Source of the DNA: Candidatus Nomurabacteria bacterium
Lineage (GTDB): Bacteria > Patescibacteriota > Minisyncoccia > Phycocordibacterales > JACOZG01
Reading direction: 5' to 3'
Assembly (NCBI GenBank): GCA_020847275.1
Contig: JADLCI010000007.1
Location: forward strand, 27,814-91,813
DNA: 64,000 bases
The number at the start of each line of letters is the position of its first letter. Positions within the stretch are counted from its first letter, which is position 1. The position numbers and the translations under genes are program-made. The notes under the pieces are model-generated. The model worked only from the letters and a program-made list of their open reading frames with translations, searched no databases and was not told the DNA's origin. Below are positions 8,282 to 63,072 of the stretch, one piece after another.

Positions 8282-10257
8282 AATTACTAATTGTCACGCA
8301 GGTGGTGGATGAGTCGGATTCGATTTTGGGGTTTTTCCACCGTTGGATTGAAGAGTTTTCTAAACATTACGAAAAGGTTACCGTAATTTGTTTGAAAAAA
8401 GGCGAGTACCATCTACCGGTCAATGTCGAGGTGCTAACTCTTGGTAAAGAGGATGGGGCTTCAAGATCCAAGTATCTCTGGCGTTTTTATAAATATATTT
8501 GGAGTGAGCGGAATAATTACGACACGGTATTTGTGCACATGAATCAAGAGTATGTCCTATTGGGTGGTCTTTTCTGGCGTTTTTGGGGTAAACGCGTTCA
8601 TTTGTGGTACACGCACAAGATGGTTAGCGTAAAATTACGTCTGGCCACTCTTCTATCAGACAAGGTCTTCACTGCGTCCGAAGAAAGTTTCAGATTCGAT
8701 ACACCAAAACTACGTATCGCAGGGCATGGCATAGACACAGACTTTTTTTCTCCTGATTCGAGCGTGGTGCGTTCTGATCACGTTCTCTCCGTTGGACGTT
8801 TGATGAAAAGTAAACGCCATGATCTCATCATTCGTGCTGTGGCATTTGCAGGTAAAGAGCTTCGGATCATTGGCGACGGGCCGGAGCGTAAAAATCTTGA
8901 GGCACTCGCCCATATGATTGGGGCAAGGGTTTATTTTCTGGGTGGGCTTAATCAGTCGCAGGTGCGGGATCAATATCAGAAAGCTGCTTTTTTTGTACAC
9001 ACCAGTGAGACCGGAAGCTTGGATAAGGTGACACTTGAAGCCCTTGCGTGTGGCTTATCTGTAGTTACAACAAGTGATGCGTATAGAAATTTTCCAGTAC
9101 GTAAAGTACAGGCAACACCGGAGGCTATTGCCGCGGGGCTGGAAACAACACAAGACGGAAGCGAAAATGCAAAGTTTGTTCGAGAGCACCATAATCTTCG
9201 TCGTTTGATCGTCTATCTATCACGGGAGATGAGTGTATTGGGACCACGTGTCGCTTTTATTTTTACACGATCTCGGAAGGAAATTATACGTGGCGTACAG
9301 ACCGGTCAGTGTGCGGATACGCCCCTTTATGGCATGAATCATATACCCCATGCTGACTATTTTACCTTGGCGTCTAAATCGATGCGCGCCGTGTTTATCA
9401 TTCTGCATCTTTTCCGGTATGACTTTGTTATTGCGCAGGACAATCTCTTACTTGGTTACATTGTTTCTATTTGTTCTCGGACGTTTAATCTTAAGACTCG
9501 GTGGTTGTATGTGGCGATAAATTCTTCCACTCTCATGCGACGACACGCCAAGCATCCGATACGGCTTTTTATCCTTAAAAAGTTTTGGTCGAGTTACTCG
9601 CATATCATCTGCCTTTCTTTCGATCAGCTTAATGATTTTATCCAAATCGGTCTCCCTCAAGCACAACTTTCATTTATTCCATTTGGTGTGGACGCCACTT
9701 TTTTTCAACCTACCGACATTCATCATGATGAAAATTTAATTGTAAGTGTCGGGCGTGACGGTGGCCGTGATTACCGTACACTTTTTTATGTCGCTGGACT
9801 GGTCGGACATCGATTCGTTGTTGTCGCTGGACAGAAAAATATTCCGCATGATGTTTCGATTCCTCCAAATATGTCGATAGTTTATGACCGGAGCATTGTT
9901 GAAGTTCGAGATTTATATACTCGGGCTCGACTCATTGTCGTTGTTTCAAAGGATGCTAGAATTCCGGATGGTTCGGACTGCTCGGGACAGACGGTAATAC
10001 TTGACGCTCTTGCTGCTGGCAAAACCGTAGTTGCAACGCATCGTTCTTGGATTGCGGACTATTTTGTTCCTGGGCGGGATCTTATTGTGGTTGAGCCTGG
10101 TAATTCCGAAGCTGTTGCGACCGCGATTACCACTCTTTGGAACGACGCTGAAAGACGGGGGGAATTATCCGCCTCCGGACGTAACAAGGTGTCTATGTGC
10201 TACACGACAAAAATTTTTGCCACAGCCCTCCTTAAGCTTATGGAATCTATAAAATGA
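8278..10257 (+). CDS. Two-module glycosyltransferase, a fusion of two complete GT4 units
   Basis: N-module motif GSLDKVTLEALACGLSVVTT. C-module motif GQTVILDALAAGKTVVATHRSWIADYF...GRDLIVVEPGN. The ORF is continuous over 659 aa. Confidence 0.7.
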   Translation: MKLLIVTQVVDESDSILGFFHRWIEEFSKHYEKVTVICLKKGEYHLPVNVEVLTLGKEDGASRSKYLWRFYKYIWSERNNYDTVFVHMNQEYVLLGGLFWRFWGKRVHLWYTHKMVSVKLRLATLLSDKVFTASEESFRFDTPKLRIAGHGIDTDFFSPDSSVVRSDHVLSVGRLMKSKRHDLIIRAVAFAGKELRIIGDGPERKNLEALAHMIGARVYFLGGLNQSQVRDQYQKAAFFVHTSETGSLDKVTLEALACGLSVVTTSDAYRNFPVRKVQATPEAIAAGLETTQDGSENAKFVREHHNLRRLIVYLSREMSVLGPRVAFIFTRSRKEIIRGVQTGQCADTPLYGMNHIPHADYFTLASKSMRAVFIILHLFRYDFVIAQDNLLLGYIVSICSRTFNLKTRWLYVAINSSTLMRRHAKHPIRLFILKKFWSSYSHIICLSFDQLNDFIQIGLPQAQLSFIPFGVDATFFQPTDIHHDENLIVSVGRDGGRDYRTLFYVAGLVGHRFVVVAGQKNIPHDVSIPPNMSIVYDRSIVEVRDLYTRARLIVVVSKDARIPDGSDCSGQTVILDALAAGKTVVATHRSWIADYFVPGRDLIVVEPGNSEAVATAITTLWNDAERRGELSASGRNKVSMCYTTKIFATALLKLMESIK

Positions 10258-11372
10258 CGGCGATAAATCAACTTAGACTTTATGTTAACCCTAAGTGGCG
10301 GCGCAAGGGCATTCACACACCCCTTCTTAATCCTTGGTGGGGAAATCCACACGAGGAAGCTTCAATTTTTTCTAAGTTGATGTTCGACAGCTATTCATTT
10401 GACACTAGCCTCTATGTGGTAACTGACGATGTTTCAACAGCAGAGATGGTTTTACCGCCGTATCCGCATCAATGGTTTTTGCGCCACGATACGGAGCTAT
10501 TTGATGAGTGTGTAAAAATTGCTAGCGAATGTAACCTTCCCATTCTAATTGATGGATTGGGGGATATTGAGCACCCAATTGAAGTCAAAAATGCCTATAT
10601 CTTACGTTACGGAGGGTATCATTTTCTTCCTGAGCGCGGTCGTATTGTTGTACCACTCCATGTCGATGATTTACTTGAACGGTGTTGTGGTGGAAGGTTT
10701 GATGTTAGAAAGAAAAAAGTAGGGAAACCAATTATTGGATTTGCGGGGTGGACAGAGCTTTCCTTTTCTCAGTATTTACGTACGATAATAAAAGAGCTTC
10801 CGGTGCGGCTGCTTGGAGTTTTTGATACCCGTTATCGCGCGTGCACTAAGGGAATATTGTGGCGACAGAAGACGATTAAAATTCTTCAAAAATCAGGACA
10901 GGTAAGACTCAATCTTCGTACGCGGCGTTCTTTCTCTGCAAGTCCGAAAACAGCGGAGGGGGATATGAAAAAACTTAGAGAGGAGATGGTAGATGTAATA
11001 TTACAAAGTGATTATGCCCTTGACGTGCGCGGTGACGCAAACAATTCAGCTAGGCTTTTTGAAATACTGTCCCTTGGGCGTATACCGATTATTGTCGATA
11101 CCGAGCGCAATTTTCCCTTTAGTGATAAAATTGATTACGCGTCTTTTGCGGTCATGATTGACTTTCGTGAACTCAATAACTTACCGAGTCGGATAGCTGA
11201 GTTTCACGATAATATTTCTCCAGAACACTTTGAACAAATGCAAAAAAATGCTCGGGAAGTTTTTGTTCGTTATTTTCGTATTGATGCAATCATGCGGTCA
11301 CTCGTGGAAGATCTGCACACAAGGATTTCATCAGGGGCTGGTTCTCTCCAAGGTGAAACAAATAGACCATAA
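10254..11372 (+). CDS. Exostosin-like glycosyltransferase (GT47 family-like)
   Basis: ARLFEILSLGRIPIIVDTERNFPFSDKIDYASFAVMI resembles the exostosin C-terminal motif. Confidence 0.5.
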   Translation: MTAINQLRLYVNPKWRRKGIHTPLLNPWWGNPHEEASIFSKLMFDSYSFDTSLYVVTDDVSTAEMVLPPYPHQWFLRHDTELFDECVKIASECNLPILIDGLGDIEHPIEVKNAYILRYGGYHFLPERGRIVVPLHVDDLLERCCGGRFDVRKKKVGKPIIGFAGWTELSFSQYLRTIIKELPVRLLGVFDTRYRACTKGILWRQKTIKILQKSGQVRLNLRTRRSFSASPKTAEGDMKKLREEMVDVILQSDYALDVRGDANNSARLFEILSLGRIPIIVDTERNFPFSDKIDYASFAVMIDFRELNNLPSRIAEFHDNISPEHFEQMQKNAREVFVRYFRIDAIMRSLVEDLHTRISSGAGSLQGETNRP

Positions 11373-35905: not shown

Positions 35906-38029
35906 TTGCTTGAATTATCTATTATTGATATGGCACTAAATAAAATCTTTTCTTTGGCCGTCATTTCTGGTCTCTTCTTGCTTCTGCTAACGCCGTTGCT
36001 AATCTCTCGCTCGCTCCTCTTTCCATTCATCACAGGGAAGGCTTTCTTTTTTAGGATATTGATTGAGGTTGTTTTTTTTCTCTGGATCGTGCTTCTGTGG
36101 CGTGAGCCAACCTATCGCCCAAGAAAGTCTTGGTTGCTTTTGAGTGTTGTCGGGTTGGTCGCGGTAAGTGCTCTAGCGACAATTTTTGGTCAGAATCCTT
36201 ATCACAGCTTCTGGTCCAATTTTGAACGGATGGACGGGCTGATCAGTTATCTTCATTTGTCTGCTTACTTTTTGGTTATCGCAAGCACATTTAGAACAGA
36301 AAAGATCTGGCAGTGGTTTTTTCATTCATCAATTGGCGTTAGTTTGGTCGTTGCGTTTTATTCGCTCGCTCAAATTGCCGGTGCCATACCGATTAGTCAG
36401 GGGCGTTTGGACTCAACGCTTGGTAATGCGATTTATCTGGCTGTCTATATGCTTTTTCATGTTTTTCTAACGACCTTTCTTCTCGTTAAGCATTGGCGGC
36501 ATTTTTGGTTACGGTTTGTTTATGTCCCTATTATAATTTTACAGACTTTTATTCTTTATAAAACAGCGACAAGGGGGGCCATCATCGGTTTTTTGGTCGG
36601 CATTGGAGTTTCAACCCTGCTTATTATGATCAAGAAATGGTCGGACAGGAGGATTCGTGTGATCACTCTTGGTGTAGTTGGGGCCTTCGTTTTACTGGTT
36701 GGCGGTTTCTGGTTTAGTCGCCATTCCGATTTTGTCGTCAAGAGTCCGGTTCTTTCTCGCTTTGCCAGCATTTCCCTTACTGACGCCACGACGGATTCTC
36801 GTCTGACTATCTGGCAGATGAGCCTACGTGGATTCCGCGAGCATCCAATTCTTGGTTGGGGCCCAGAAAACTATAACTTGGTTTTTAATAAATATTTTGA
36901 ACCAAAGCTCTGGCGACAGGAACAATGGTTTGACCGTTCGCACAATATTTTCTTAGATTGGATGATTGATGCGGGTGTTCTTGGCCTACTTTCATATCTA
37001 TCACTTTTTGTCACGGCAATCTATTATCTCTGGCGGTCTCGTCAAACGGTGATAATTAAGAGTTTGTTTACTGGTCTTCTCGTGGCTTATTTGGTCAATA
37101 ATTTCTTTGCCTTCGACAATCTCACAAGTTATCTAGTTTTCTTTTCTTTTCTGGCGTATTTGCATTATCTGAACTTCTCGGAAGATGCTGTGGCTGTTGG
37201 TAAGTTTTCAAGGTACTTATCATGGAACAATGGTCACACGGCGGGGGTGATTATTTTGGTTTTCCTGCTCTCTGGGTCACTTTATTATTTCAACCTCCGA
37301 CCAATTTCGGCTAGCACGACGCTGATTCAGGCTATTGGTGATAGTGGTTCTGGTCTTCAACCAGAAAATGTGGCGAGTAGAAGACTGGCTTTGTTTAAGA
37401 AGGTTTTTGCTGCGGGGACTTTTGCTAATCGTGAAAGTACAGAACAACTTTTTGGCCAGGTGATGAATATTGTTGGTAACCCCATTGTTTCGGACACAAC
37501 TAAACAAGAGTTTGTTAACCTAACAGTTGATGAGATGAAGAAAGAAATTAAGACGGCCCCGGAAGATGCTCGTGCACATCTCTTGCTTGGCTCGATGTTG
37601 GTAAATATTGGAAAGTTTCCTGATGCTTTACCGGTTCTTGTTCGAGCAAGTGAGTTGTCGCCCAAAAAACAAACAATTCGTTTTCAACTCGCATCGGCCT
37701 ATTTGAACAGTGGCGAAAAAAAGAAAGCATTGGATATTGCCGAAGAAACCTTCCGTTTGGATGAGAATTTTCCAGAAGCAAGAAAATTATATGCGCTTAT
37801 TGCTCTCTACAACAATGATATTAAGTTGGCGAACGCTTTACTCGAGTCGTTTGTGACCTCTTTTCCGTCAGAACTTTTAGACGAGAGACTGGTACAAGCT
37901 TATGGAGTTGTTCGTGATGCAAATTCTTTGGGTCTTTTGTGGCAGAGAGCGGTTCAGCGTGACCCACTGTTCGAGCAAGATGTTAATACTTTTTTAGTGA
38001 GACTCAGGAAAGAGGGTGTTATTGAGTAA
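35906..38029 (+). CDS. O-antigen ligase/polymerase family membrane protein (Wzy_C-like) with C-terminal TPR repeats
   Basis: About 12 TM helices are followed by TPR-like repeats (ASAYLNSGEKKKALDIAEETFRLDENFPEARKLYA). Confidence 0.72.
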   Translation: MLELSIIDMALNKIFSLAVISGLFLLLLTPLLISRSLLFPFITGKAFFFRILIEVVFFLWIVLLWREPTYRPRKSWLLLSVVGLVAVSALATIFGQNPYHSFWSNFERMDGLISYLHLSAYFLVIASTFRTEKIWQWFFHSSIGVSLVVAFYSLAQIAGAIPISQGRLDSTLGNAIYLAVYMLFHVFLTTFLLVKHWRHFWLRFVYVPIIILQTFILYKTATRGAIIGFLVGIGVSTLLIMIKKWSDRRIRVITLGVVGAFVLLVGGFWFSRHSDFVVKSPVLSRFASISLTDATTDSRLTIWQMSLRGFREHPILGWGPENYNLVFNKYFEPKLWRQEQWFDRSHNIFLDWMIDAGVLGLLSYLSLFVTAIYYLWRSRQTVIIKSLFTGLLVAYLVNNFFAFDNLTSYLVFFSFLAYLHYLNFSEDAVAVGKFSRYLSWNNGHTAGVIILVFLLSGSLYYFNLRPISASTTLIQAIGDSGSGLQPENVASRRLALFKKVFAAGTFANRESTEQLFGQVMNIVGNPIVSDTTKQEFVNLTVDEMKKEIKTAPEDARAHLLLGSMLVNIGKFPDALPVLVRASELSPKKQTIRFQLASAYLNSGEKKKALDIAEETFRLDENFPEARKLYALIALYNNDIKLANALLESFVTSFPSELLDERLVQAYGVVRDANSLGLLWQRAVQRDPLFEQDVNTFLVRLRKEGVIE

Positions 38030-38206
38030 GTCATATTTGACTTTTGGGATCAGTTTCGATAAACTACTTTTTGTGGGTGCGATGTTGGCTTCGGTCAGCA
38101 CTGCTCCGCTAAATGTAAATGTCTGCGTAAGTCCCGTCCAGCTTTATTGTTGCGACGGGATTTGCGTGTCCATTGGTTTCATAATAAACTAAAAAAAGTT
38201 TATGCC

Positions 38207-38277
38207 CAGTTGTGGTCAGCGGTCGCACTCACATAGACATTTAGTTTTTTGGAGACAGCACCCGCTGACCACAACTG
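38207..38277. repeat. Perfect 16-bp inverted repeat (stem) with a 39-nt loop in the secA upstream region
   Basis: CAGTTGTGGTCAGCGG at 38207-38222 and its exact reverse complement CCGCTGACCACAACTG at 38262-38277. Confidence 0.8.
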
Positions 38278-38423
38278 AGTGGAAACATTTTTTGAAAAAG
38301 TTATCCACATTTTTCTGAAAAAGTAATTGTATCGCGCACATTTTTGTCCGATAATTATATGGAAGAACAACAACCAGTAGTCGAGGATGTTGTATTAGCT
38401 TTTAAAAATAATTTTTACGGTTC

Positions 38424-38519
38424 ATGAAGAAAAAGAAAAAAGCGGTAGCAAAGAAGCGCAAGACCACGAAGCGCAAGACCACGAAGAAGGCGACGAAGAG
38501 AAAGAAATCTCGCCGATAG
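38424..38519 (+). CDS. Candidate micro-ORF encoding a 31-aa extremely basic Lys/Arg-rich peptide
   Basis: Translates to MKKKKKAVAKKRKTTKRKTTKKATKRKKSRR. It contains a 15-nt tandem repeat (GCGCAAGACCACGAA twice). No obvious SD is present. It is shorter than the ORF-track cutoff. Confidence 0.3.
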   Translation: MKKKKKAVAKKRKTTKRKTTKKATKRKKSRR

Positions 38520-38566
38520 TCTTGTAATTGTTTTTTCGCTTCAAAAAAGGCATAATGCTATGCATT

Positions 38567-40966
38567 ATGCCTTTTTGGTCGAAAATTTTCGGAGATCAGA
38601 GTACTGGTTATATTAAGACACTTGGGCCGATTGTTGCGCGCATTAATGAGTTGGAGGCGGAATTTTCCACGCTTGATTTAGCTGGTTTCCCTTCAAAAAC
38701 TGCCGCTTTTAGGCAGCGCCTCACTGACGGGGAAACTTTAGATGATCTTTTACCAGAAGCGTTTGCGTTGGTGCGGGAAGCGTCTCGTCGTACTCTCAAT
38801 CAGCGTCATTACGATGTTCAGTTGCTTGGAGGGGTAATTCTTCATCAGGGTAAAATTGCTGAAATGAAAACTGGTGAAGGTAAGACTTTGGTTTCTACAC
38901 TGCCAGCTTATCTAAACGCGCTCACCGGACGCGGGGTTCATTTGGTGACAGTTAATGATTATCTCTCTCGGCGTGATGCTGTTTGGATGGGACAGATCTA
39001 TGCTGCCCTGGGGTTATCGGTTGGCGTTATCAATCATGAGACCTCTTTTCTCTACGACCCAGGACATAAGGAGGTAGACGAGAAAAGAGATGCAGAAGGT
39101 TTGTTTCGAGTTTTTTATGAATTCTTAAAACCGTGTTCAAGGCGTGAAGCTTACGCTGCGGATATTACTTACGGGACCAACAATGAGTTTGGTTTTGACT
39201 ATCTGCGTGACAACCTATCTCGTAACCCTGAACAGGTGTCACAGATTAGTTTACCAGAACGATCATATCACAATTTTGCCATTGTTGACGAAGTGGATTC
39301 TATTCTAATTGACGAAGCACGAACGCCACTCATTATATCCGCACCAGTTGCTGACGCGGATTCTCTCTACATGCAATTTGCTCAAATTGCCAAAGGTTTT
39401 ACTCGTGACACTGATTACACCACTGAAGAGAAGAGTAAGACGATCGCTCTCTTGGATGAGGGAATATCGAGGGCCGAAAAATCTTTGGGAGTAGAAAACA
39501 TCTATACGGATAAGGGTATCAAGTACGTTCATCATTTAGAAACGGCTGTTCGTGCTCAAGCATTGTTTGAACGAGACCGCGATTACGTGGTGCGCGGGGG
39601 TGAGGTGGTGATTGTTGATGAATTCACTGGACGCCTTCAACCTGGGCGACGCTGGAGTGAGGGTTTGCACCAAGCAATCGAAGCCAAGGAGGGCGTGATG
39701 GTGAAGCAAGAATCGAGAACACTAGCCAGCGTTACATTCCAAAATTATTTCAAGCTCTATCGGAAAGTGGCGGGGATGACTGGCACGGCGCTAACTTCTG
39801 CCGAGGAGTTTCTCAGGGTATATGGTTTGGACACAATCGCCGTTCCCACCCATCGATCGAATGCGCGACGCGACCTAAACGATCTAATATTTCAAACCGA
39901 GAAAGGTAAAATTCAGGCAGTGGTGCGGAAAATTAAGGCGATTAATGAGACGGGGCAACCAGTTTTGGTGGGGACGATTTCTATCGAAAAAAACGAAATG
40001 CTCGCGGCTTATCTAAAGCGCGAGGGAATTGCTCACAACCTACTTAATGCTAAAAATAATGAGCAAGAGGGAGCGATTATTGCTGAAGCTGGCCGTCGAG
40101 GGAGTGTTGTCATTGCCACCAACATGGCTGGTCGTGGTGTGGATATTAAGCTCGGTGGACCGAGTGCGAGTGAAATGGAACGCGAAGAGATTAAGAAACT
40201 CGGTGGTTTGTATGTTATTGGAACGGAGAGACATGAGGCCAGACGCATTGATAATCAGCTTCGTGGGCGCGCTGGGCGGCAAGGTGATCCTGGGGTAACC
40301 CAATTTTTTATCTCACTTGAGGATGATCTGGCACGCGTTTTTGCTGCCGAGAGAATTAAGGGCATGATGGGACGGTTTGGCATTCCAGAAGATGAACCAA
40401 TTGAGGCACGTTTGGTCTCGCGGGCAATTGAGGGGGCGCAGGGGAAAATTGAGGGTTTAAATTTTGACGTCCGTAAACATTTGCTTGATTACGATAATGT
40501 TCTAAACCATCAACGCACGACCATTTATGAGCGTCGTCGTCGCCTGCTTTTTGGGGATATTGTTTTTCTTGATGAGTGGCTATTGAATAGCCTTCCAGAA
40601 GCACAAGTACTTGATCAGGAGAAAAAGTTACTTCTTTGCCGAGCAATTTTGCAGGTGATCGATCTAAATTGGTTGGAACATCTGGAGGCGATGGAATATA
40701 TGCGCAGTAGTGTTGGTTTGCGGGCTTATGGTCAGCGTGATCCGTTGGTGGAGTACAAACGCGAGGGCTTAAAAATGTTTAAAGAAATGGAGTCGAATAT
40801 CTTGGAAGAAATCAAACGTCTTCTGCCGAACATTGGTGAAGGTTTCAAGGATGAGGTAACGGTGCCACTTGCGACCGTTGCATCGGGTAATCCCACCGAA
40901 GTTGGACGGAATGACCTCTGCCCCTGTGGCTCTGGTAAAAAATATAAAAAATGTCATGGAAAATAA
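38567..40966 (+). CDS. secA: Preprotein translocase ATPase SecA
   Basis: DEAD-like motor motifs MKTGEGKTLV and DEVDSILIDEARTPLIIS. HWD and scaffold domains. C-terminal zinc-binding tail CPCGSGKKYKKCHGK. An alternative in-frame ATG lies at 38555 and the track start at 38528. Confidence 0.95.
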   Translation: MPFWSKIFGDQSTGYIKTLGPIVARINELEAEFSTLDLAGFPSKTAAFRQRLTDGETLDDLLPEAFALVREASRRTLNQRHYDVQLLGGVILHQGKIAEMKTGEGKTLVSTLPAYLNALTGRGVHLVTVNDYLSRRDAVWMGQIYAALGLSVGVINHETSFLYDPGHKEVDEKRDAEGLFRVFYEFLKPCSRREAYAADITYGTNNEFGFDYLRDNLSRNPEQVSQISLPERSYHNFAIVDEVDSILIDEARTPLIISAPVADADSLYMQFAQIAKGFTRDTDYTTEEKSKTIALLDEGISRAEKSLGVENIYTDKGIKYVHHLETAVRAQALFERDRDYVVRGGEVVIVDEFTGRLQPGRRWSEGLHQAIEAKEGVMVKQESRTLASVTFQNYFKLYRKVAGMTGTALTSAEEFLRVYGLDTIAVPTHRSNARRDLNDLIFQTEKGKIQAVVRKIKAINETGQPVLVGTISIEKNEMLAAYLKREGIAHNLLNAKNNEQEGAIIAEAGRRGSVVIATNMAGRGVDIKLGGPSASEMEREEIKKLGGLYVIGTERHEARRIDNQLRGRAGRQGDPGVTQFFISLEDDLARVFAAERIKGMMGRFGIPEDEPIEARLVSRAIEGAQGKIEGLNFDVRKHLLDYDNVLNHQRTTIYERRRRLLFGDIVFLDEWLLNSLPEAQVLDQEKKLLLCRAILQVIDLNWLEHLEAMEYMRSSVGLRAYGQRDPLVEYKREGLKMFKEMESNILEEIKRLLPNIGEGFKDEVTVPLATVASGNPTEVGRNDLCPCGSGKKYKKCHGK

Positions 40967-45015: not shown

Positions 45016-45903
45016 TTGACCACCTTTGGTATTGGTGGTTACGCTGCCTACTATATTCGTGTCGTTGAGCCAGAAGAACTAGCTTTTGTGGTTCGTGAGA
45101 CGCGTAAATTGCGGATTCCATTTCGTCTGATTGCGGGTGGAAGCAATGTTGTTTTCTCGGATGAAACTTTTGTCGGCCTAATAATTCATTTTGTTCAAAA
45201 TAACTCCAAAATTTTTAGTAAAAAAGGAACTTTGGATGTGGCCGCTAATCTTGGTTTGATGAAGTTGATTCAAAGTAGCATCAAGGATGGGTTGGCGGGA
45301 TTGGAATCATTGTCTGGGATTCCTGGTTCCGTGGGCGGTGCGATTGTCGGTAATGCTGGCGCATACGGTCAAAGTATCTCGGATCATCTTACCGAGGTCC
45401 AGATTTTTGACGGAAGGAACGTGCGGTGGTTGAAAAAGAGCGAGTGCCACTTTGCTTATCGTGATAGCGCCTTTAAACGAGAAAAGAGAAAATGGTTGGT
45501 TCTGCGTGCCAGGTTTAAATTGAAGAATGGCGATAGTAAGAAGTTGCTGAAGAAATCGCAACAAATTATCACCACGAGAAATATGAAATATAATCCAAGC
45601 ATGAAGTGTCCTGGGAGTTTCTTTAAGAATGTGCAAGTGAAGAACATTTCTACGTCTGCTTTAAATAAGATAGATAAAAATAAAATTCGGGACGGGAAGA
45701 TTCCTGCCGGGTACTTATTAGAAGTGGTTGGCGCTTGTGGTATGAAAATGGGTAAAATTGAAGTAGCAAGTTTCCACGGCAATTTACTGATAAACAGGGG
45801 CGGAGGTAAATTTGCTGATGTGAAAAAGTTGTCTAGGGCACTTAAAAATAGGGTTTATAAAAAATTTGGCATAAGATTAGAAGAAGAAGTGAGATATCTG
45901 TAA
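45016..45903 (+). CDS. murB: UDP-N-acetylenolpyruvoylglucosamine reductase MurB (short form, apparent TTG start)
   Basis: TTFGIGGYAAY FAD-binding motif and GGSNVVFSD. MurB C-terminal domain. There is no in-frame ATG upstream; the ATG at 44999 is out of frame. Confidence 0.75.
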   Translation: MTTFGIGGYAAYYIRVVEPEELAFVVRETRKLRIPFRLIAGGSNVVFSDETFVGLIIHFVQNNSKIFSKKGTLDVAANLGLMKLIQSSIKDGLAGLESLSGIPGSVGGAIVGNAGAYGQSISDHLTEVQIFDGRNVRWLKKSECHFAYRDSAFKREKRKWLVLRARFKLKNGDSKKLLKKSQQIITTRNMKYNPSMKCPGSFFKNVQVKNISTSALNKIDKNKIRDGKIPAGYLLEVVGACGMKMGKIEVASFHGNLLINRGGGKFADVKKLSRALKNRVYKKFGIRLEEEVRYL

Positions 45904-47339: not shown

Positions 47340-47590
47340 GCCAGATTTTGTCTCTTGACGTCTAGAATGGCGGCGCGATAATTGGGACAGTTCACTGGAG
47401 TGGTAGGGGACATTCCTAGCATAGAAAATAAAAAGGTTCCCAAATCGTCACGTTGTAGCTTTGGTTGCAACGCGTCTGCAGGAACCAACTTGTCTAAACG
47501 AGGACATTCCTCCACTTCACTCTGGTGAGCGAGGTAACGCACCAAGATCTGGCCTTTGGGCCGGGTCTTGGTGTCTCTTTGTCTTCGCAC
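47336..47590 (-). CDS. Orphan 84-aa ORF in the gatB-RRM intergenic region; doubtful
   Basis: ORF-track entry only. No recognisable motif. It is antisense to the promoter/5' UTR region of the RRM gene. Confidence 0.2.
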   Translation of the reverse strand: MRRQRDTKTRPKGQILVRYLAHQSEVEECPRLDKLVPADALQPKLQRDDLGTFLFSMLGMSPTTPVNCPNYRAAILDVKRQNLA

Positions 47591-47598
47591 TAATTCGC

Positions 47599-47626
47599 TT
47601 GACTTTTTCTTTCACCTGTGTATACT
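47599..47626 (+). promoter_or_regulatory. Sigma70-like promoter TTGACT-16-TATACT upstream of the RRM protein gene
   Basis: TTGACT at 47599-47604 and TATACT at 47621-47626. The leader to the ATG at 47706 is about 75 nt. Confidence 0.5.
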
Positions 47627-47705
47627 TGATAGCGTAAGTGTTTTCTCTCGCGATCTTCGCGGGGAAGGTCGCCCTTACACAAGCTAGTGAAAGAATAGAA
47701 GATCA

Positions 47706-48008
47706 ATGGCTAAGAAATTGTATGTTGGCGGGTTGCCTTACACAACCACTGAAGATGCGCTGAAGAGTGCATTCGCTCAGGCTGGTGCTGTGGAGACAGC
47801 CAACATCATCATGGATCGTATGACCGGTCGCTCTAAGGGCTTCGGGTTCGTGCAGATGACTGATGATGCTGAAGCTGACAAAGCGATTGAGATGTGGAAT
47901 GGGAAAGAATTTGAGGGTCGTAAACTGACCGTCAATGAAGCTCGTCCGCTGGAGGCTCGTCCTCCTCGCCGAAATGGCGGTTTCGATCGCGGTGGCAACA
48001 ACTGGTAA
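47706..48008 (+). CDS. RRM-type RNA-binding protein (glycine-rich C-terminus)
   Basis: RNP2 KLYVGGL and RNP1 KGFGFVQM. C-terminal RRNGGFDRGGNNW. Confidence 0.85.
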   Translation: MAKKLYVGGLPYTTTEDALKSAFAQAGAVETANIIMDRMTGRSKGFGFVQMTDDAEADKAIEMWNGKEFEGRKLTVNEARPLEARPPRRNGGFDRGGNNW

Positions 48009-48028
48009 TTAATCAGTTTTGCTGAAGA

Positions 48029-53798: not shown

Positions 53799-53861
53799 CA
53801 GTTATCCACTGTTTTCTGCTGTTTTATTTTTTGTTGTTTTTGGTCTAAAATAGAGTCTTCT

Positions 53862-56150
53862 ATGACCGCTGCCAAAAATTCACTAAAACAAATTAAGAAA
53901 CGTGATGGCTCGGTTGTCCCTTTCGATCAGTCTCGTATTGTAATTGCCGTACAGAAGGCCATGAGAGCCTCTGGTGAGGGTGACGAGGGGGTTGCGGTTA
54001 AACTGGCCACCGCTGTTACCCGCGATCTTGAAAAACAAATGAAAAAGGCCGGGAGAGAATATGTTCCTGCGGTGGAGGAAGCTCAAGATTTGGTTGAGAA
54101 ACAGTTAATTGCTCACAATCTTGCTGCCGTGGCAAAAGCGTACATCCTCTATCGCCAGCGTCGTACCGAATTGCGTCAGGAGAAAGGAGAAGTTCCTAAG
54201 GAGGTGAGAGAGTTGTCGGCTAAGAGTAAGCAATATTTCCGTAACCAACTTTCGGAGTTTGTTTATCACACTACCTACTCGAAATGGATTCCAGAAAAAA
54301 GACGTCGTGAGACCTGGGTGGAGACGGTTGAGCGTTATATGAGTTTCATGCGGGAGAATCTGGGTAATAAGTTGAAGGAAAGTGAGTACGCTGAAATTCA
54401 ACAATCAATACTAGAGATGAAGGCGCTTGGTTCCATGAGACTTCTTTGGTCAGCTGGTTCTGCGGCACGCAAAACCAATGTGGCCGCCTATAATTGCTCT
54501 TTCACGGCACCATCGAAGTGGCAGGATTTCGCCGAAGTGATGTATATCTTGATGTGTGGCACTGGGGTCGGTTTTTCCGTAGAACATCAAACGGTCGAAA
54601 TGCTACCAATGATCAAGCGACAGACGGGTAAAAAAATATCAACTTTCACCATCCCCGATTCAAAGGAGGGTTGGTGCGATGCCTTTTCTCTTGGTCTGGA
54701 GACTTGGTCCTCGGGGCAGGATATCGAATTTGATTATTCCGCAATTAGACCTCAAGGTTCGCGTTTGGTTACCATGGGTGGGCGTGCTTCGGGGCCAGCG
54801 CCGCTCCGGGCCCTCTTGGATTTCTCACGGGAAAAGATGTTAGCACGCCAAGGTCGCCGACTTTCCACTCTTGATGTCCACGATATTCTTTGTAAGACCG
54901 GTGAAGTTGTGGTGATGGGGGGCGTTCGTCGTTCAGCTCTAATATCCCTCTCGGATGTTGATGATCAAGATATGCGTGAAGCAAAGAATGGACAGTTTTA
55001 TCTTAATCAGCCACAGCGAAGCATGGCCAATAATTCAGCTGTTTATAATGAAAAACCGACGGTGCCACAGTTCTTGGACGAGTGGGTCAATTTGGTTAAA
55101 TCAGGTTCTGGCGAGCGGGGTGTTTTCAATCGCGGTAGCTTGAAGCAGCAGTTGCCAGATAGACGTTGGAAGGTTTTCGAGAAAGATGCTTGGTCTTCAG
55201 GTACTAATCCTTGTGGTGAAATAATTTTGAAATCTAAACAATTTTGTAATCTGTCAGAGGTTGTGGCTCGCGCAGAAGATACGGAGGCGACCCTGGTGAA
55301 GAAGGTTCGTGTGGCTACAATTCTCGGTACTTATCAAGCTACTCTGACTAAGTTTCCTTATTTGTCTAAAGAATGGAAGAAAAATTGCGAGGAGGAGGCC
55401 TTGCTTGGTGTTTCCATCACGGGGCAGTTTGATTCTAAGGTTGTCCGCAATCCAGATGTTTTGCGAAAATTGAAGGAGGTGGCGATTGAAACAAATCGTG
55501 AATATGCCTCTCGCTTTGGTATCAATCCATCCACCTGTATTACCTGTGTTAAGCCATCCGGTAATGGCTCACAACTCTTCGATTCCTCTTCGGGAATGCA
55601 TCCGCGTCATGCGCCCTACTACATTCGCCGTATTCGGATTGAGAATCACAATCCACTTTTCCATATGCTCCGCGATCTTGGAGTGCCGCATCAACCAGAA
55701 GTAGGACAAACTCACGAAACAGCGACAACCTATGTACTGGAGTTCCCGGTGAAAGCGCCAAAAGGGTCTGTCTATAAAGATGAGATTAGCGCCCTTGCTC
55801 AGTTGGAGCACTGGAAGATGCTGAAAGAAAATTTTACCGAACACAATCCATCGACCACGATTTCTGTAGGGGAGGATGAGTGGTTGCAAGTCGGCAACTG
55901 GGTTTATCACCATTGGGATATTGTTGGTGGACTTTCTTTTTTGCCACGGAGCGAGCATGTTTATCGGTTAGCTCCATACGAGGCAATTACCGAGGAACAT
56001 TACACTAAACTAGTAAAAAGTTTTCCGCAGATTGATTTTTCTAAGGTTGTACTTTACGAGTATGATGACGAGACTAGTGGTTCTAAAGAATTGGCCTGCG
56101 TTGCTGGAACCTGCGAGATTGATTTGACTCCAAAAGAGAAGGTTGTATAA
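53862..56150 (+). CDS. nrdJ: Adenosylcobalamin-dependent (class II) ribonucleotide reductase with N-terminal ATP-cone
   Basis: ATP-cone VIKRDGSVVPFDQSRI. The class II core has active-site Cys in NPCGEIIL and FCNLSEV contexts. Confidence 0.88.
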   Translation: MTAAKNSLKQIKKRDGSVVPFDQSRIVIAVQKAMRASGEGDEGVAVKLATAVTRDLEKQMKKAGREYVPAVEEAQDLVEKQLIAHNLAAVAKAYILYRQRRTELRQEKGEVPKEVRELSAKSKQYFRNQLSEFVYHTTYSKWIPEKRRRETWVETVERYMSFMRENLGNKLKESEYAEIQQSILEMKALGSMRLLWSAGSAARKTNVAAYNCSFTAPSKWQDFAEVMYILMCGTGVGFSVEHQTVEMLPMIKRQTGKKISTFTIPDSKEGWCDAFSLGLETWSSGQDIEFDYSAIRPQGSRLVTMGGRASGPAPLRALLDFSREKMLARQGRRLSTLDVHDILCKTGEVVVMGGVRRSALISLSDVDDQDMREAKNGQFYLNQPQRSMANNSAVYNEKPTVPQFLDEWVNLVKSGSGERGVFNRGSLKQQLPDRRWKVFEKDAWSSGTNPCGEIILKSKQFCNLSEVVARAEDTEATLVKKVRVATILGTYQATLTKFPYLSKEWKKNCEEEALLGVSITGQFDSKVVRNPDVLRKLKEVAIETNREYASRFGINPSTCITCVKPSGNGSQLFDSSSGMHPRHAPYYIRRIRIENHNPLFHMLRDLGVPHQPEVGQTHETATTYVLEFPVKAPKGSVYKDEISALAQLEHWKMLKENFTEHNPSTTISVGEDEWLQVGNWVYHHWDIVGGLSFLPRSEHVYRLAPYEAITEEHYTKLVKSFPQIDFSKVVLYEYDDETSGSKELACVAGTCEIDLTPKEKVV

Positions 56151-56158
56151 TCAGAGTA

Positions 56159-56463
56159 GTCTGGTGTCGGGTAGTTGCTCTCGTTTCGGAATTTGAGACG
56201 GGAGAGGAAAGTCCGAACACTTATCCATCAAAAGGTGGATTAAAATGGTAGCGGGTAATGCCCGTCCGGAGCAATCCGTGAGGTGCGAACAGAGACGAGC
56301 TCCTTCAGTGGAGGTGAAACGGCTAAATCCTTACCCAAGTGCAAGGTCGTGCCCCGCTATTTGCGGGGAGTGCCGCTAGAGGCTAATGGTGACATTAGTC
56401 CCAGATAAATAACTATCTCCTTGTCTAAGATAGGGAACAGAATTCGGCTTATAGACACCAGAC
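56159..56463 (+). ncRNA. rnpB: RNase P RNA (bacterial type A-like, reduced)
   Basis: P4 strands GGAAAGTCCGAAC (about 56208) and ACAGAATTCGGCTTATAG (about 56437). Conserved AGTGGAGGTGAAACGGCTAAATCC... region. P1 helix GTCTGGTGTC at 56159-56168 pairs with GACACCAGAC at 56454-56463. Confidence 0.85.
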
Positions 56464-56474
56464 AAAGAGTCAAA

Positions 56475-56524: not shown

Positions 56525-58204
56525 ATGGTCAAACACGTTTGGCGATTACTCAATAAGGAATGGTCCGGCCTGCACGAGGCGGCATATCTCCTTGGTTTTT
56601 TTGCCCTTTTTTCGCAAATGCTTGCCCTTGTGCGGGATCGTTTATTTGCCTACACCTTTGGCGCTTCGCACACGCTTGATCTTTATTACGCCGCTTTTCG
56701 GATTCCTGATTTCATCTTTGTTTCACTTGGCTCGTTAGTTTCCCTTTCTGTCCTCATCCCTTTTTTGTTGGAGAAAATTGATCAATCAGACAGCGAGGCG
56801 CGCTCTTTTCTCAGTCAACTTTTTTCGTTCTTTCTTATCCTAATGGTTGTTGTTGGTGTGACTGCCTGGTTTCTCACACCTCGTTTATTGCCATGGCTAT
56901 TCCCAAGCTACGTTGGTGGAGAATTTTATTCGGAATTGGTCGCAATGAGTCGGATTCTACTGCTCTCGCCGATTTTGCTTGGTCTCTCAAACTTTCTTGC
57001 AAGCATTACCCAGATCTATAAGAGGTTTTTCATCTATGCGATTTCGCCACTGCTCTATAACCTTGGAATTATTATCGGTATTCTCTTCCTCTATCCATTT
57101 TTTGGACTTAGTGGTCTTGCTTGGGGTGTTGTGCTTGGGGCATTTTGCCACCTGCTGATTCAAGTTCCTTTTGTGATCCAACAAGGACTATGGCCACGTT
57201 TCCGTTTTCGGGTTGATTTTCGATCCATTAGACGGGTCATGACCGTCTCGCTGCCTCGCACTATCACTCTTTCGGCAAACGAGCTGTCAAAGCTCTTTTT
57301 AATAGCACTTGCTGCCACTCTTGCGACCGGCTCGATATCTGTTTTCAGTTTTGCCTTCAATCTTCAGGCGGTGCCACTATCTATTATTGGTGTTTCTTAT
57401 TCTCTCGCCGCCTTCCCGTCACTTACGCGATTCTTTTTGCGGGGAGAACATGAGCAGTTTATCAAACAGATGATCACTTCGGCCCAACACATTATTTTCT
57501 GGATCCTACCAGCCACGGTGCTTTTCATCGTTCTTCGGGCGCAGATTGTTCGTACCATTCTCGGTTCTGGTCAATTTGATTGGTCTGATACACGTCTCAC
57601 GGCAGCCACACTTGCTCTTTTCGCGGTGTCGCTCGTTCCCCAGGCATTAGCACTTCTTTTTGTCCGGTCCTATTATGCTCGCGGCAAAACTTGGCAACCG
57701 CTTCTTTGGAATAGTGTTGCTTCCGCGGTCGTTATCATTGGGAGTTACATTTTAATTCAAGTCTTTCAACAGGCACCGATTTTTCGTTATTTTATAGAGT
57801 CTCTTTTCAAGGTTGATGATATTTCTGGTGGAGAAGTCTTAATGCTTCCGCTTGCCTTTTCTTTCGGGCTTTTTGTTAATCTGTTTGCGCACTGGCGTTC
57901 TTTCCATTATGACTTCCCGAGCTTTTCTCGTCCGGTTTTGCGTACATTTTGGCACAGTTTTTCTGCTTCTGTTCTTGCGGGCGGTGTGGCTTACCTGGGT
58001 CTAAATCTTTTCAGCACCGTTTTTGACCTCAACACCTTCTGGGGGATTTTCTTGCAAGGACTGCTGTCCGGGATTATGGGTATTATTGCAGCGATTATCG
58101 TTCTTGGTTTAATGAAAAGTCATGAGTTGAAAGAGATTTGGCAAACACTTCACCGTCGGATCTGGGGGGTGCAGATTATTGGTCCCGACCCTGATATGAT
58201 TTAG
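56525..58204 (+). CDS. murJ: Lipid II flippase MurJ (MviN)
   Basis: About 14 TM helices. N-terminal LALVRDRLFAYTFGAS...DLYYAAFRIPDF is the MurJ signature. Confidence 0.9.
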   Translation: MVKHVWRLLNKEWSGLHEAAYLLGFFALFSQMLALVRDRLFAYTFGASHTLDLYYAAFRIPDFIFVSLGSLVSLSVLIPFLLEKIDQSDSEARSFLSQLFSFFLILMVVVGVTAWFLTPRLLPWLFPSYVGGEFYSELVAMSRILLLSPILLGLSNFLASITQIYKRFFIYAISPLLYNLGIIIGILFLYPFFGLSGLAWGVVLGAFCHLLIQVPFVIQQGLWPRFRFRVDFRSIRRVMTVSLPRTITLSANELSKLFLIALAATLATGSISVFSFAFNLQAVPLSIIGVSYSLAAFPSLTRFFLRGEHEQFIKQMITSAQHIIFWILPATVLFIVLRAQIVRTILGSGQFDWSDTRLTAATLALFAVSLVPQALALLFVRSYYARGKTWQPLLWNSVASAVVIIGSYILIQVFQQAPIFRYFIESLFKVDDISGGEVLMLPLAFSFGLFVNLFAHWRSFHYDFPSFSRPVLRTFWHSFSASVLAGGVAYLGLNLFSTVFDLNTFWGIFLQGLLSGIMGIIAAIIVLGLMKSHELKEIWQTLHRRIWGVQIIGPDPDMI

Positions 58205-62979: not shown

Positions 62980-63053
62980 GCACGCGTAGCTCAGTTGGTT
63001 AGAGCACCGAGCTTATACCTCGGCGGTCCTTGGTTCGAATCCAAGCGCGTGCA
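62980..63053 (+). tRNA. tRNA-Ile with genomically encoded UAU anticodon
   Basis: Acceptor GCACGCG/CGCGTGC, D-arm GCTC-AGTTGGTTA-GAGC, anticodon arm CCGAG-CTTATAC-CTCGG (U33, TAT at 63014-63016, A37), T-arm CTTGG-TTCGAAT-CCAAG. Confidence 0.82.
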
Positions 63054-63072
63054 CAGAGTCTCTTTTCCCCTA

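Follow-up and report, generated by a model that had tools for sequence, protein, structure and literature searches.

Two candidate co-evolving small RNAs and a putative gene for a lysine-rich microprotein in the intergenic gap upstream of secA in Patescibacteria

The described systems that come closest to the locus reported here are antisense small RNAs (sRNAs) encoded beside their partners, small basic proteins of the histone H1 type, promoters with DnaA boxes, and arrest peptides encoded before sec genes. Genes for ribonucleotide reductase (RNR) are classic targets of DnaA in E. coli, and the raiA motif RNA lies upstream of raiA/hpf, which precedes secA in Bacillota. The Patescibacteria or Candidate Phyla Radiation (CPR) make up a large, uncultured share of bacterial diversity, and to our knowledge almost none of their regulators have been described; a search of the literature found no Patescibacteria study of small RNAs that act by base pairing or of small lysine-rich proteins. 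Among the basic proteins of other bacteria, chlamydial Hc2 varies in length by lysine-rich pentamers (PMC2848022), and with Hq1 and the 30-aa ScvA of Coxiella there are examples of DNA-binding proteins that are very small basic peptides (PMC4766238). Here, we analyze the intergenic gap at positions 38030-38566 between a Wzy-like gene and secA on a patescibacterial contig (Candidatus Nomurabacteria bacterium, JADLCI010000007.1), of which a stretch of 64 kb with nearly all genes on the + strand was studied as a whole (referred to as the window). With moderate confidence, we read the gap as three independent conserved transcription units, for two candidate small RNAs (RNA1 and RNA2) and a lysine-rich microprotein, rather than as one regulatory region of secA; all of its features given below lie on the + strand.

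Relatives of the locus were collected by SecA-anchored scans of GTDB genomes and JGI metagenomes, which yielded 160 loci with at best about 60% SecA identity, and by a protein search combined with contig look-ups, which added eight closer loci (L161-L164 with 75-76% and L165-L168 with 67-69% SecA identity). The elements of the gap are kept in relatives whose SecA proteins are 54-76% identical to that of the window. A nhmmer search showed positions 38040-38300 to be conserved in L088 (E = 9e-10), L002 and L006, and profiles together with a covariance model (CM) placed the long hairpin belonging to RNA2 in 18 loci and the upstream module representing RNA1 in 14. The segment from 38030 to 38300 folds with a z-score of -8.6 against dinucleotide shuffles, none of 200 of which folded equally well. 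A first-pass annotation had described the gap as a single structured non-coding region with two stem-loops and a micro-ORF (ORF, open reading frame), and all of these features were found in place when re-derived from the sequence; the structure was borne out, but the two stem-loops turned out to be parts of two separate transcription units. The separation is indicated by -10 and -35 elements at fixed distances, by the terminator of RNA1, by an inversion of RNA2 in one relative (L082), and by the occurrence of RNA2 without a recognisable RNA1 in two others (L006 and L001). Beyond the features annotated before, we found a perfect 15-nt inverted repeat at the start of secA, a perfect DnaA-box 9-mer, sigma-70-like promoters before each unit, and a complementarity between RNA1 and the loop of RNA2.

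The first unit, RNA1, is a candidate small RNA of about 100 nt (38073-38172), which was delimited by its nhmmer profile, a conserved 5' motif and a terminator hairpin. A consensus scan placed its promoter at 38037-38065, with the -35 element TTGACT (38037-38042), a 17-nt spacer and the -10 element TAAACT (38060-38065). The same arrangement recurs in eight of eight relatives, where a TAnnnT -10 element ends 6-8 nt before the 5' motif and a TTGnnn -35 element stands at a spacing of 16-17 nt. The 5' motif itself (GUGGGUGCGA, 38073-38082) follows the consensus GUG(A/G)GUGC behind a -10 element in 14 loci and marks the predicted 5' end. It is followed by a variable hairpin, by the segment CUCC...AAAUGUCU (38104-38124) and by the terminator hairpin (38125-38167), which had been annotated as a 7-bp hairpin and whose arms lie at 38126-38138 and 38154-38166. 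The variable hairpin carries a UUCG tetraloop in the window and UUCG, GCAA or GAAA in relatives, and the terminator hairpin with its U-tract is present in every locus compared. The nhmmer profile of RNA1 matches L088, L002, L004, L107 and L008. We also considered RNA1 as a coding sequence and rejected this, because its conserved stretch falls into different frames in the window and in L088, indicating that it is non-coding. At the level of sequence prediction, a short non-coding transcript is bounded by its own promoter and a Rho-independent terminator, and RNA1 appears as a candidate small RNA produced from its own sigma-70-type promoter and ending in the terminator hairpin.

The second unit, RNA2, is likewise a candidate small RNA of about 100 nt (about 38192-38294), recognised by covariation and by a strand-specific CM score. 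Its -10 element CATAAT lies at 38180-38185 and corresponds to TATAAT (L006, L088, L107), TATACT (L002, L004, L008, L011) or TAGAAT (L009) in relatives, several of which also carry a TTGnnn -35 element at a distance of 17 nt. The long stem of RNA2 (38203-38222/38262-38281) contains the 16-bp inverted repeat of the first-pass annotation, the perfect arms of which (38207-38222 and 38262-38277) are separated by 39 nt; at a complementarity of 84%, the repeat can be followed over 32 nt. Aligned with MAFFT, nine sequences have 92.7% of the cells in the stem paired, with double changes in 20 of the 28 pairs; none of 500 shuffles reached these values, and controls with slid arms gave at most 45% paired cells. 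The CM alignment of 16 sequences gave nearly the same result (92.6% of cells paired, 19 pairs with double changes). The covariance model scores 82 bits on the + strand vs. 29 bits on the - strand, and this asymmetry together with the G-U pairs indicates that the repeat acts as RNA rather than as a DNA palindrome. Inside the stem, the motifs GCACUCACA (38225-38233) and UUGGAG (38249-38254) are invariant, except for UAGGAG in L163 and L164, whereas the apical loop between them (AGACAUUU, 38235-42) differs between genomes. A U-run at 38288-38293 closes the unit. In L082, the RNA2 module (3455-3545), together with its own promoter (TTGTCA-17-TAGGCT), runs opposite to RNA1 and the flanking genes; because the arms of the long stem are inverted repeats, the flip may have arisen by recombination or rearrangement. 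Two other identities of the module were considered. A mobile repeat of the REP or MITE type (repetitive extragenic palindrome, miniature inverted-repeat transposable element) was rejected, as a 17-mer from the stem arm is found nowhere else in the window. A type I toxin-antitoxin system was not recognised either, there being no conserved ORF in RNA1 or RNA2 and no start codon at a proper distance after the GGAG of the RNA2 loop.

RNA1 and RNA2 are complementary to each other at two sites. In the first contact, the 5' motif of RNA1 pairs with GCACUCAC of RNA2 (GUGGGUGC/GCACUCAC), and in the second, the last 15-20 nt of RNA1 ahead of its terminator are complementary to the apical loop and the UUGG(AG) of RNA2. 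Both duplexes were found in all loci checked, and the sequence of the second contact varies by genome: it reads AAAUGUCU:AGACAUUU in the window, GAAAAACU:AGUUUUUC in L008 and UGAAAGUC:GACUUUCA in L082. When the partners were swapped between loci, only 4 of 5040 permutations matched the pairing of the cognate combinations over the whole interaction; with the variable contact alone, none of 50,000 did, and in 6 of 10 loci the cognate partner came out first. RNA1 and RNA2 therefore co-evolve, as the variable contact changes and yet keeps matching its own partner. A conserved pairing region with a co-varying partner is what characterises trans-acting base-pairing sRNAs, and the suggestion of the first-pass annotation that the region could encode a small RNA or riboregulator has gained substance in the form of two conserved, covarying and mutually complementary RNA modules, neither of which is in Rfam.

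A further hint to the role of the pair comes from gene order. In six other Paceibacteria (L001, L004, L006, L008, L009, L107), RNA2 lies 17-100 nt upstream of murB and has no U-run, and by this position it is the predicted 5' leader of murB there. In the clade of the window, murB lies about 6 kb downstream of secA (45016-45903 in the window), RNA2 ends in a U-run, and both RNAs are well conserved. The ancestral gene order, as reconstructed from these arrangements, is Wzy-like - RNA1 - RNA2 - murB - micro-ORF - (hpf) - secA. We looked for a murB pseudogene remnant in the gap, but tblastn places murB only at 45016-45903 and detects no similarity in the gap. Because RNA2 appears as the murB leader in other Paceibacteria, we infer that RNA1 most likely exerted an ancestral antisense control of murB translation or stability, in which it would mask the sole element of the murB leader resembling a Shine-Dalgarno (SD) sequence. 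In the lineage of the window, where murB is 6.5 kb away, RNA2 would occur as a free RNA, and the pair may act as an sRNA with its decoy, or in trans on other targets. When RNA1 and the RNA2 loop were compared with every gene start in the window to predict targets, long imperfect duplexes swamped the result.

The two modules could also be conceived as one cis-acting leader, i.e., a riboswitch or pseudoknotted attenuator, which would have served murB ancestrally and would serve the micro-ORF or secA in the window. Such a leader would agree with the adjacency of the modules in the same order in 13 of 14 loci, with RNA2 abutting murB in six loci, and with the crossing order of the contacts, which is expected of a pseudoknot; the invariant internal-loop nucleotides likewise resemble a pocket for a ligand or protein. 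Nevertheless, a terminator hairpin with U-tract stands between the modules, a -10 element with 5-6 of 6 consensus matches precedes RNA2 at a fixed distance in most loci, and RNA2 can be inverted (L082) or present without RNA1 (L006, L001), as mentioned above. In the window's clade, RNA2 moreover ends in its U-run and is followed by a separate promoter. We regard a common cis-acting leader as unlikely on these grounds and continue to treat RNA1 and RNA2 as two separately transcribed RNAs.

The third unit is the microprotein gene at 38424-38519, recognised as a K-rich ORF that is conserved 5' of secA and accumulates synonymous changes. It starts with ATG and codes for 31 aa (MKKKKKAVAKKRKTTKRKTTKKATKRKKSRR), as annotated before, and it contains the previously reported 15-nt tandem duplication at 38453-38482, two exact copies of which (38453-38467 and 38468-38482) encode the pentamer KRKTT twice. 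A scan for K/R-rich ORFs over all fetched DNA (about 1.6 Mb) returned them almost only 100-750 nt upstream of secA and on the same strand, at 22 loci including the window. The peptides range from 13 aa (MAKRKKAAKKKKR) to 76 aa, and nearly all begin with M-(A/P/K)-(A/K)-K-K. In the longer homologues, the K-rich frame alone is open, the other frames being interrupted by 2-7 stops. Within the clade of 75% SecA identity, the micro-ORF codes for 28-31 aa with every indel in frame, and the peptides align well (...KKATKRKKSRR in the window, ...KKATKRKSRR in L162, ...RKATKRKTSKRR in L161 and ...KKATKRKRSR in L163 and L164). The KKATKRK block shows 11 synonymous vs. 3 nonsynonymous (K/R) pairwise codon differences, including AGA/CGC for Arg, and the Ser codon beside it switches family from TCT to AGC/AGT. 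This synonymous bias and the in-frame indels argue for translation and, as codon-level constraint, indicate that the micro-ORF is a putative protein-coding gene. The length of the microprotein apparently drifts through gain and loss of the 15-nt units coding for lysine-rich pentamers, as illustrated by a 62-aa homologue of about eight tandem KRKTT/RRKTT pentamers in L167 (837-1026) compared with the two copies in the window.

Database searches returned little for these peptides. No significant match to the K-rich peptides was found in Pfam and NCBIfam, including the ribosomal protein models, and the window peptide does not match PF07382, NF038052 or NF038053; against these three models, the 76-aa homologue reaches 11.7 bits vs. 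a cut-off of 40 and 10-11 bits vs. cut-offs of 80-135. Owing to its low complexity, the same homologue also remained without a match at E<=0.001 when 5.8 billion proteins were searched by a word index. Neither the micro-ORF nor SecA, which was tried with two different starts, was found as a record in look-ups of the exact sequence. Public gene calls treat the locus unevenly: L161 carries a spurious 86-aa antisense ORF (3747-4007, - strand), L162 a 61-aa call with a false N-terminal extension (3742-3927, + strand), and L163 and L164 have no call at the microprotein locus, so that among L161-L164 the microprotein is called only in L162. A 22-aa acidic ORF (MEEQQPVVEDVVLAFKNNFYGS, 38359-38427), which shares an ATGA overlap with the start of the micro-ORF, was rejected as a gene, because close relatives have no ATG in the equivalent leader and the region corresponds to a hairpin of the 5' untranslated region (UTR). 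In L008, a 157-aa ORF (10161-10634), located about 2.6 kb downstream of the end of secA, contains a lysine-rich region of the KKVAKK type (from MPAKK on) within its N-terminal 60 residues, and relatives' genomes may carry more than one H1-like basic protein.

The predicted promoter of the microprotein gene extends from 38301 to 38355 and combines the DnaA-box consensus TTATCCACA (38301-38309) with a -35 element TTGTAT (38327-38332), a 17-nt spacer and a -10 element GATAAT (38350-38355). In 17 of 22 loci, a perfect TTATCCACA precedes GATAAT or CAATAAT by 38-43 nt, and three more have it with one mismatch. The motif is mostly preceded by AAAG and centred near -57, and a TTGTnn -35 element lies 16-17 nt from the -10 element. 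The box at 38301-38309 is the sole perfect DnaA box in the window, and we interpret it as serving transcription control, possibly as part of a broader regulon. A second candidate was found at 53802-53851, where a one-mismatch box (GTTATCCACT) stands 36 nt upstream of the TAAAAT -10 element of a gene for a B12-dependent class II RNR with an ATP-cone (53862-56150); the -10 element lies 10 nt before the ATG. The shared promoter layout of the microprotein and RNR genes suggests a small DnaA-box regulon. We also considered an origin of replication (oriC) and rejected it, as the gap contains a single box, hits with up to one mismatch occur at chance level across the window, and there is no switch in GC skew, which is positive across the whole window with a monotonically climbing cumulative curve. 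An extended motif (A)AAGTTATCCACA was observed just upstream of -35 elements in L017 (7840), L086 (379), L011 (2809) and L013 (429). By N-terminal reading only, the genes behind it are rpoB-like (L017), similar to S-adenosylmethionine (SAM) decarboxylase (L086) and ATP-grasp/purD-like (L011), and the motif may be a general promoter-proximal site in this lineage.

The first-pass annotation had considered the micro-ORF as possibly leaderless, which is not supported, since the conserved promoter gives a leader of about 62 nt. This 5' UTR contains a hairpin at 38367-38393 (ACAACAACC/GGAUGUUGU), the loop of which (AGUAGUCGA) is a degenerate copy of a GGUCGA motif of the relatives. The motif, GGTCG(A/G)N at the DNA level, precedes the ATG of the micro-ORF by 26-92 nt in 10-12 of 14 loci, is also present in L165 and L168, and often lies in a hairpin loop; the window has AGTCGAG at 38376-38384, and leaders with the motif are those of L002, L007, L008, L082, L083, L085, L087, L165 and L168. 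The stem covaries weakly (8 pairs, 2 of them compensatory, in five sequences), and the motif could be a binding or processing site.

Regarding the function of the microprotein, it had been proposed as a tiny nucleic-acid-binding protein. The conserved gene for a polycationic peptide in 22 loci stands in favor of this, and nucleic-acid binding as such is the most plausible activity by composition. We consider the peptide as presumably disordered and of the histone-H1/protamine type, with DNA as its most likely partner and rRNA as another possible one. Against this, one must weigh a ribosomal or ribosome-associated role specific to the lineage, similar to that of bS22, bTHX, bL37 or eL41. The microprotein resembles these proteins in size and charge, its gene adjoins hpf, the gene for a ribosome hibernation factor, in L009 and L087, and it is kept in reduced genomes. 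A tenfold length variation and drifting pentamer copy numbers would be unusual for a protein fitting a fixed rRNA pocket, though, and no ribosomal model of NCBIfam or Pfam matches; in addition, the promoter carries a DnaA box, as does that of the RNR gene of the window. A ribosomal peptide is rather improbable in view of these data, and a small nucleoid protein remains our preferred assignment.

The microprotein gene ends in a predicted intrinsic terminator at 38544-38576 (AAAAAGGCATAATGC-TAT-GCATTATGCCTTTTT), the 15-nt arms of which (38544-38558/38562-38576) form a perfect inverted repeat around a 3-nt loop, with a 10-bp GGCATAATGC stem lengthened by A5/T5 pairing. The broader downstream segment holding it folds at -20.9 kcal/mol. 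A simple terminator scanner missed this site because the T-run was counted as part of the stem. All 14 micro-ORFs tested are followed, 3-30 nt past the stop codon, by a hairpin (-14 to -28 kcal/mol) and its T-rich tail. In the window, the terminator overlaps the start of secA (38567-40966, 799 aa), which is 100% identical to a 799-aa NCBI SecA (P0001) of Candidatus Nomurabacteria bacterium. The ATG at 38567 was accepted as the start, because the N-terminus MPFWSKIFG fits the pattern M-x-F-(L/W)-x-x-(I/L/F)-F-G of the relatives and agrees with the NCBI protein. This ATG lies in the 3' arm of the terminator, and a -10 element CATAAT (38551-38556) lies in the 5' arm, 10 nt before the ATG. An equivalent hairpin in L163 and L164 likewise contains the secA ATG; CATAAT is found 7-10 nt before it in the window and L161-L164, and distant relatives have TGnTAnnnT 6-9 nt before it. 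The secA mRNA is probably leaderless or near-leaderless and transcribed separately from CATAAT. It would start inside the terminator and lack the 5' arm, so that the hairpin should not form on it. The statements of the first-pass annotation that an SD is missing here and that leaderless starts seem to occur agree with the rest of the window, in which only 11 of 47 large ORFs have a GGAG/GAGG-type SD near any start within the first 30 codons. TATAAT or TAAAAT stands 8-10 nt before an ATG without SD at 1988, 3670, 51253, 53862 and other positions, and this genome appears to use leaderless or near-leaderless mRNAs frequently.

These data bear directly on the other role suggested for the micro-ORF, that of a regulatory leader peptide of secA, acting either by attenuation via Lys-tRNA or polybasic stalling, or by a SecM-like arrest that opens the hairpin over the secA start. 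The micro-ORF indeed precedes secA in the same orientation at 22 loci, a terminator stands between the two genes, the hairpin encloses the secA ATG in the window, L163 and L164, and small upstream ORFs before sec genes are a known regulatory class (PMC12992588). However, a conserved -10 element belonging to secA itself precedes the ATG by 6-10 nt, and the terminator of most relatives is located about 40-200 nt upstream of secA, clear of its start. In L009 and L087, hpf even lies between the micro-ORF and secA, and a length range of 13-76 aa is incompatible with a position-dependent attenuator. The predicted fold of 38360-38585 contains no antiterminator; the terminator forms alone, and the sole pairing between the ORF and the downstream region (GAAGCG/CGCUUC) spares its arms. 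Arrest peptides are defined by an N-terminal signal or transmembrane segment and a C-terminal motif of the type FxxxxWIxxxxGIRAGP or RAPP/RGPP (PMC12992588), whereas the microprotein has no hydrophobic, signal or transmembrane segment, no Pro-Pro and none of these or similar motifs. A secA leader peptide is very unlikely on this evidence, and the suggestion is not supported; a separately transcribed microprotein gene is preferred.

Finally, it is hardly credible that the 16-bp repeat is a DNA element (an operator, a REP/MITE remnant or a recombination site) and that the micro-ORF arose by chance in a tract rich in purines. The repeat is perfect, although functional RNA stems often contain imperfections, and purine-rich DNA is stop-poor in any frame, a point on which the short homologues are uninformative. 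But these notions are largely refuted by the covariation and codon data, as the stem is free to change in sequence while its pairing (including G-U pairs) stays, its CM score depends on the strand, it occurs in a single copy in the window, and the micro-ORF shows stops in the other frames of long homologues, switches of the Arg codon family within its conserved block and of the Ser family just beyond, and conserved ATG starts and terminators.

Extending the reading of three separate units, we tentatively propose that Patescibacteria may carry a lineage-wide riboregulatory module, which would consist of two adjacent, co-evolving sRNAs beside a DnaA-box-controlled, protamine-like microprotein, the length of which would evolve by slippage of pentamers. 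The RNA2 hairpin would have originated as the murB leader and become a free RNA in some lineages, with RNA1 clamping its loop at two sites. If true, this would represent a compact control point that couples the synthesis of cell-wall precursors with the state of the chromosome and with protein export in ultra-small cells. The individual parts would be of interest as well: RNA1 and RNA2 as an sRNA/target pair with unusually clear intermolecular co-variation, the microprotein gene as an unannotated gene usually missed or mis-called by gene callers, its promoter as a member of a class marked by a perfect DnaA box, and secA as one of many genes with probable expression from leaderless mRNAs. With respect to annotation, the locus illustrates that long intergenic regions of reduced genomes can be densely functional.

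Several observations weigh against these interpretations. The two contacts between RNA1 and RNA2 cross each other (they are non-collinear), so that a single continuous duplex would be awkward, and the minimum free energy fold of the window sequence partly pairs the 5' motif of RNA1 within RNA1's own hairpin, so that the motif may be inaccessible. The invariant interior motifs of RNA2 show no covariation in the alignments of relatives, and no conserved site for the RNA1 5' motif was found near murB in the window's clade. L161, with a SecA identity of 76%, has neither an RNA2 match nor the RNA1 5' motif at the equivalent position. The motif GTTATCCACA is also present upstream of rpoB-like, speH-like and other genes in relatives (identified by N-terminal reading only), and because these genes are unrelated, it could mark the site of a general factor rather than a link to replication. 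A polycationic composition cannot separate DNA binding from binding to rRNA, the ribosome or polyphosphate. Finally, the transcription start sites, the terminators and the translation of the ORF are predictions from the sequence.

Scans for known RNA families were consistent throughout. At the gathering threshold, Rfam 15 found only RNase P RNA and two tRNAs in the window, all outside the gap, and at E<=10, the region 37900-38700 gave only chance matches of the microRNA type with up to 17 bits. No match was obtained in eight related loci either. With these permissive scans, signal recognition particle RNA, 6S RNA, tmRNA, the raiA motif and riboswitches were ruled out, and ARAGORN detected no tmRNA. 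The first-pass annotation had named such a covariance-model scan and the conservation of micro-ORF and stem as checks; the region matches no family, and both elements are kept in relatives. The RNase P RNA of the window is of bacterial class A (56159-56467, 128.7 bits) and lies between the genes at 53862-56150 and 56525-58204, and one tRNA gene (62980-63054) codes for tRNA-Ile with the anticodon TAT (UAU). This tRNA is uncommon in bacteria, where AUA is normally read by a lysidine-modified CAU tRNA.

The gene upstream of the gap (35906-38029) codes for a membrane protein with a Wzy_C domain (Pfam, E=1e-25) and TPR repeats. In L163 and L164, which are among the closest relatives, RNA1 is separated from the Wzy-like gene by an additional gene of about 128 aa (2985-3380 and 2985-3371, respectively), which the window does not have and the product of which has an N-terminal hydrophobic segment. 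The gap had been called the longest of the window, which is about right: the distance between large ORFs at 47340-48018 is longer, but contains a 100-aa RRM-type gene. Upstream of this gene for a putative RNA-binding protein (47706-48008), a non-coding stretch of 366 nt (47340-47705) has a good promoter match (TTGACG-17-GATAAT, 47356-47384), which would imply a 5' UTR of about 320 nt, and has no match in Rfam.

Compared with known systems, RNA1 resembles the adjacent, trans-encoded antisense sRNAs IstR-1 (tisB) and OhsC (shoB) and the loop-to-linear pair CopA/CopT in its short size, its own promoter and intrinsic terminator, its location beside its partner, and its pairing with a structured RNA, in which 8-20 nt contact an exposed loop or upstream region. 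As in the masking of standby sites, the paired region includes the sole SD-like sequence of the leader. Unlike the partners of IstR-1 and OhsC, RNA2 is not a toxin mRNA, but a predicted murB leader in some lineages and a predicted free, terminated RNA here, and the RNA1-RNA2 pair further differs from all three systems in its two non-collinear contacts and in having no sequence or Rfam relationship to them; the outcome of its pairing is predicted from sequence. The raiA motif RNA is similar to our region as a structured non-coding RNA of about 200 nt near hpf and secA, but differs in its architecture, as the region here consists of two single-hairpin units, in the phylum, and by the lack of an Rfam match at E up to 10. 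With SecM and other arrest peptides of sec genes, the micro-ORF has in common that it is a small ORF directly before secA with a hairpin over the secA start; it differs by the terminator and the separate secA promoter in between, and the overlap of hairpin and secA is confined to the window, L163 and L164. The promoter of the microprotein gene shares a perfect TTATCCACA at a fixed site just upstream of the -35 element with DnaA-box promoters (dnaA and nrdAB of E. coli, the DnaA regulon of B. subtilis), although its predicted site consists of a single box near -57 rather than a cluster. The microprotein is rich in Lys, Arg, Ala and Thr, of low complexity and presumably disordered, as are Hc1 and Hc2 of Chlamydia, AlgP of Pseudomonas, and Hq1 and ScvA of Coxiella; with 13-76 aa, it is far shorter than Hc1, Hc2 and AlgP, and ScvA is rich in Arg and Gln rather than Lys. 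The synteny with secA and the DnaA-box promoter are not known for H1-like proteins, whereas the change in length via lysine-rich pentamers is common to Hc2 (PMC2848022) and the microprotein. Set beside these systems, RNA1, RNA2 and the microprotein represent new families of known kinds, the functions of which we infer.

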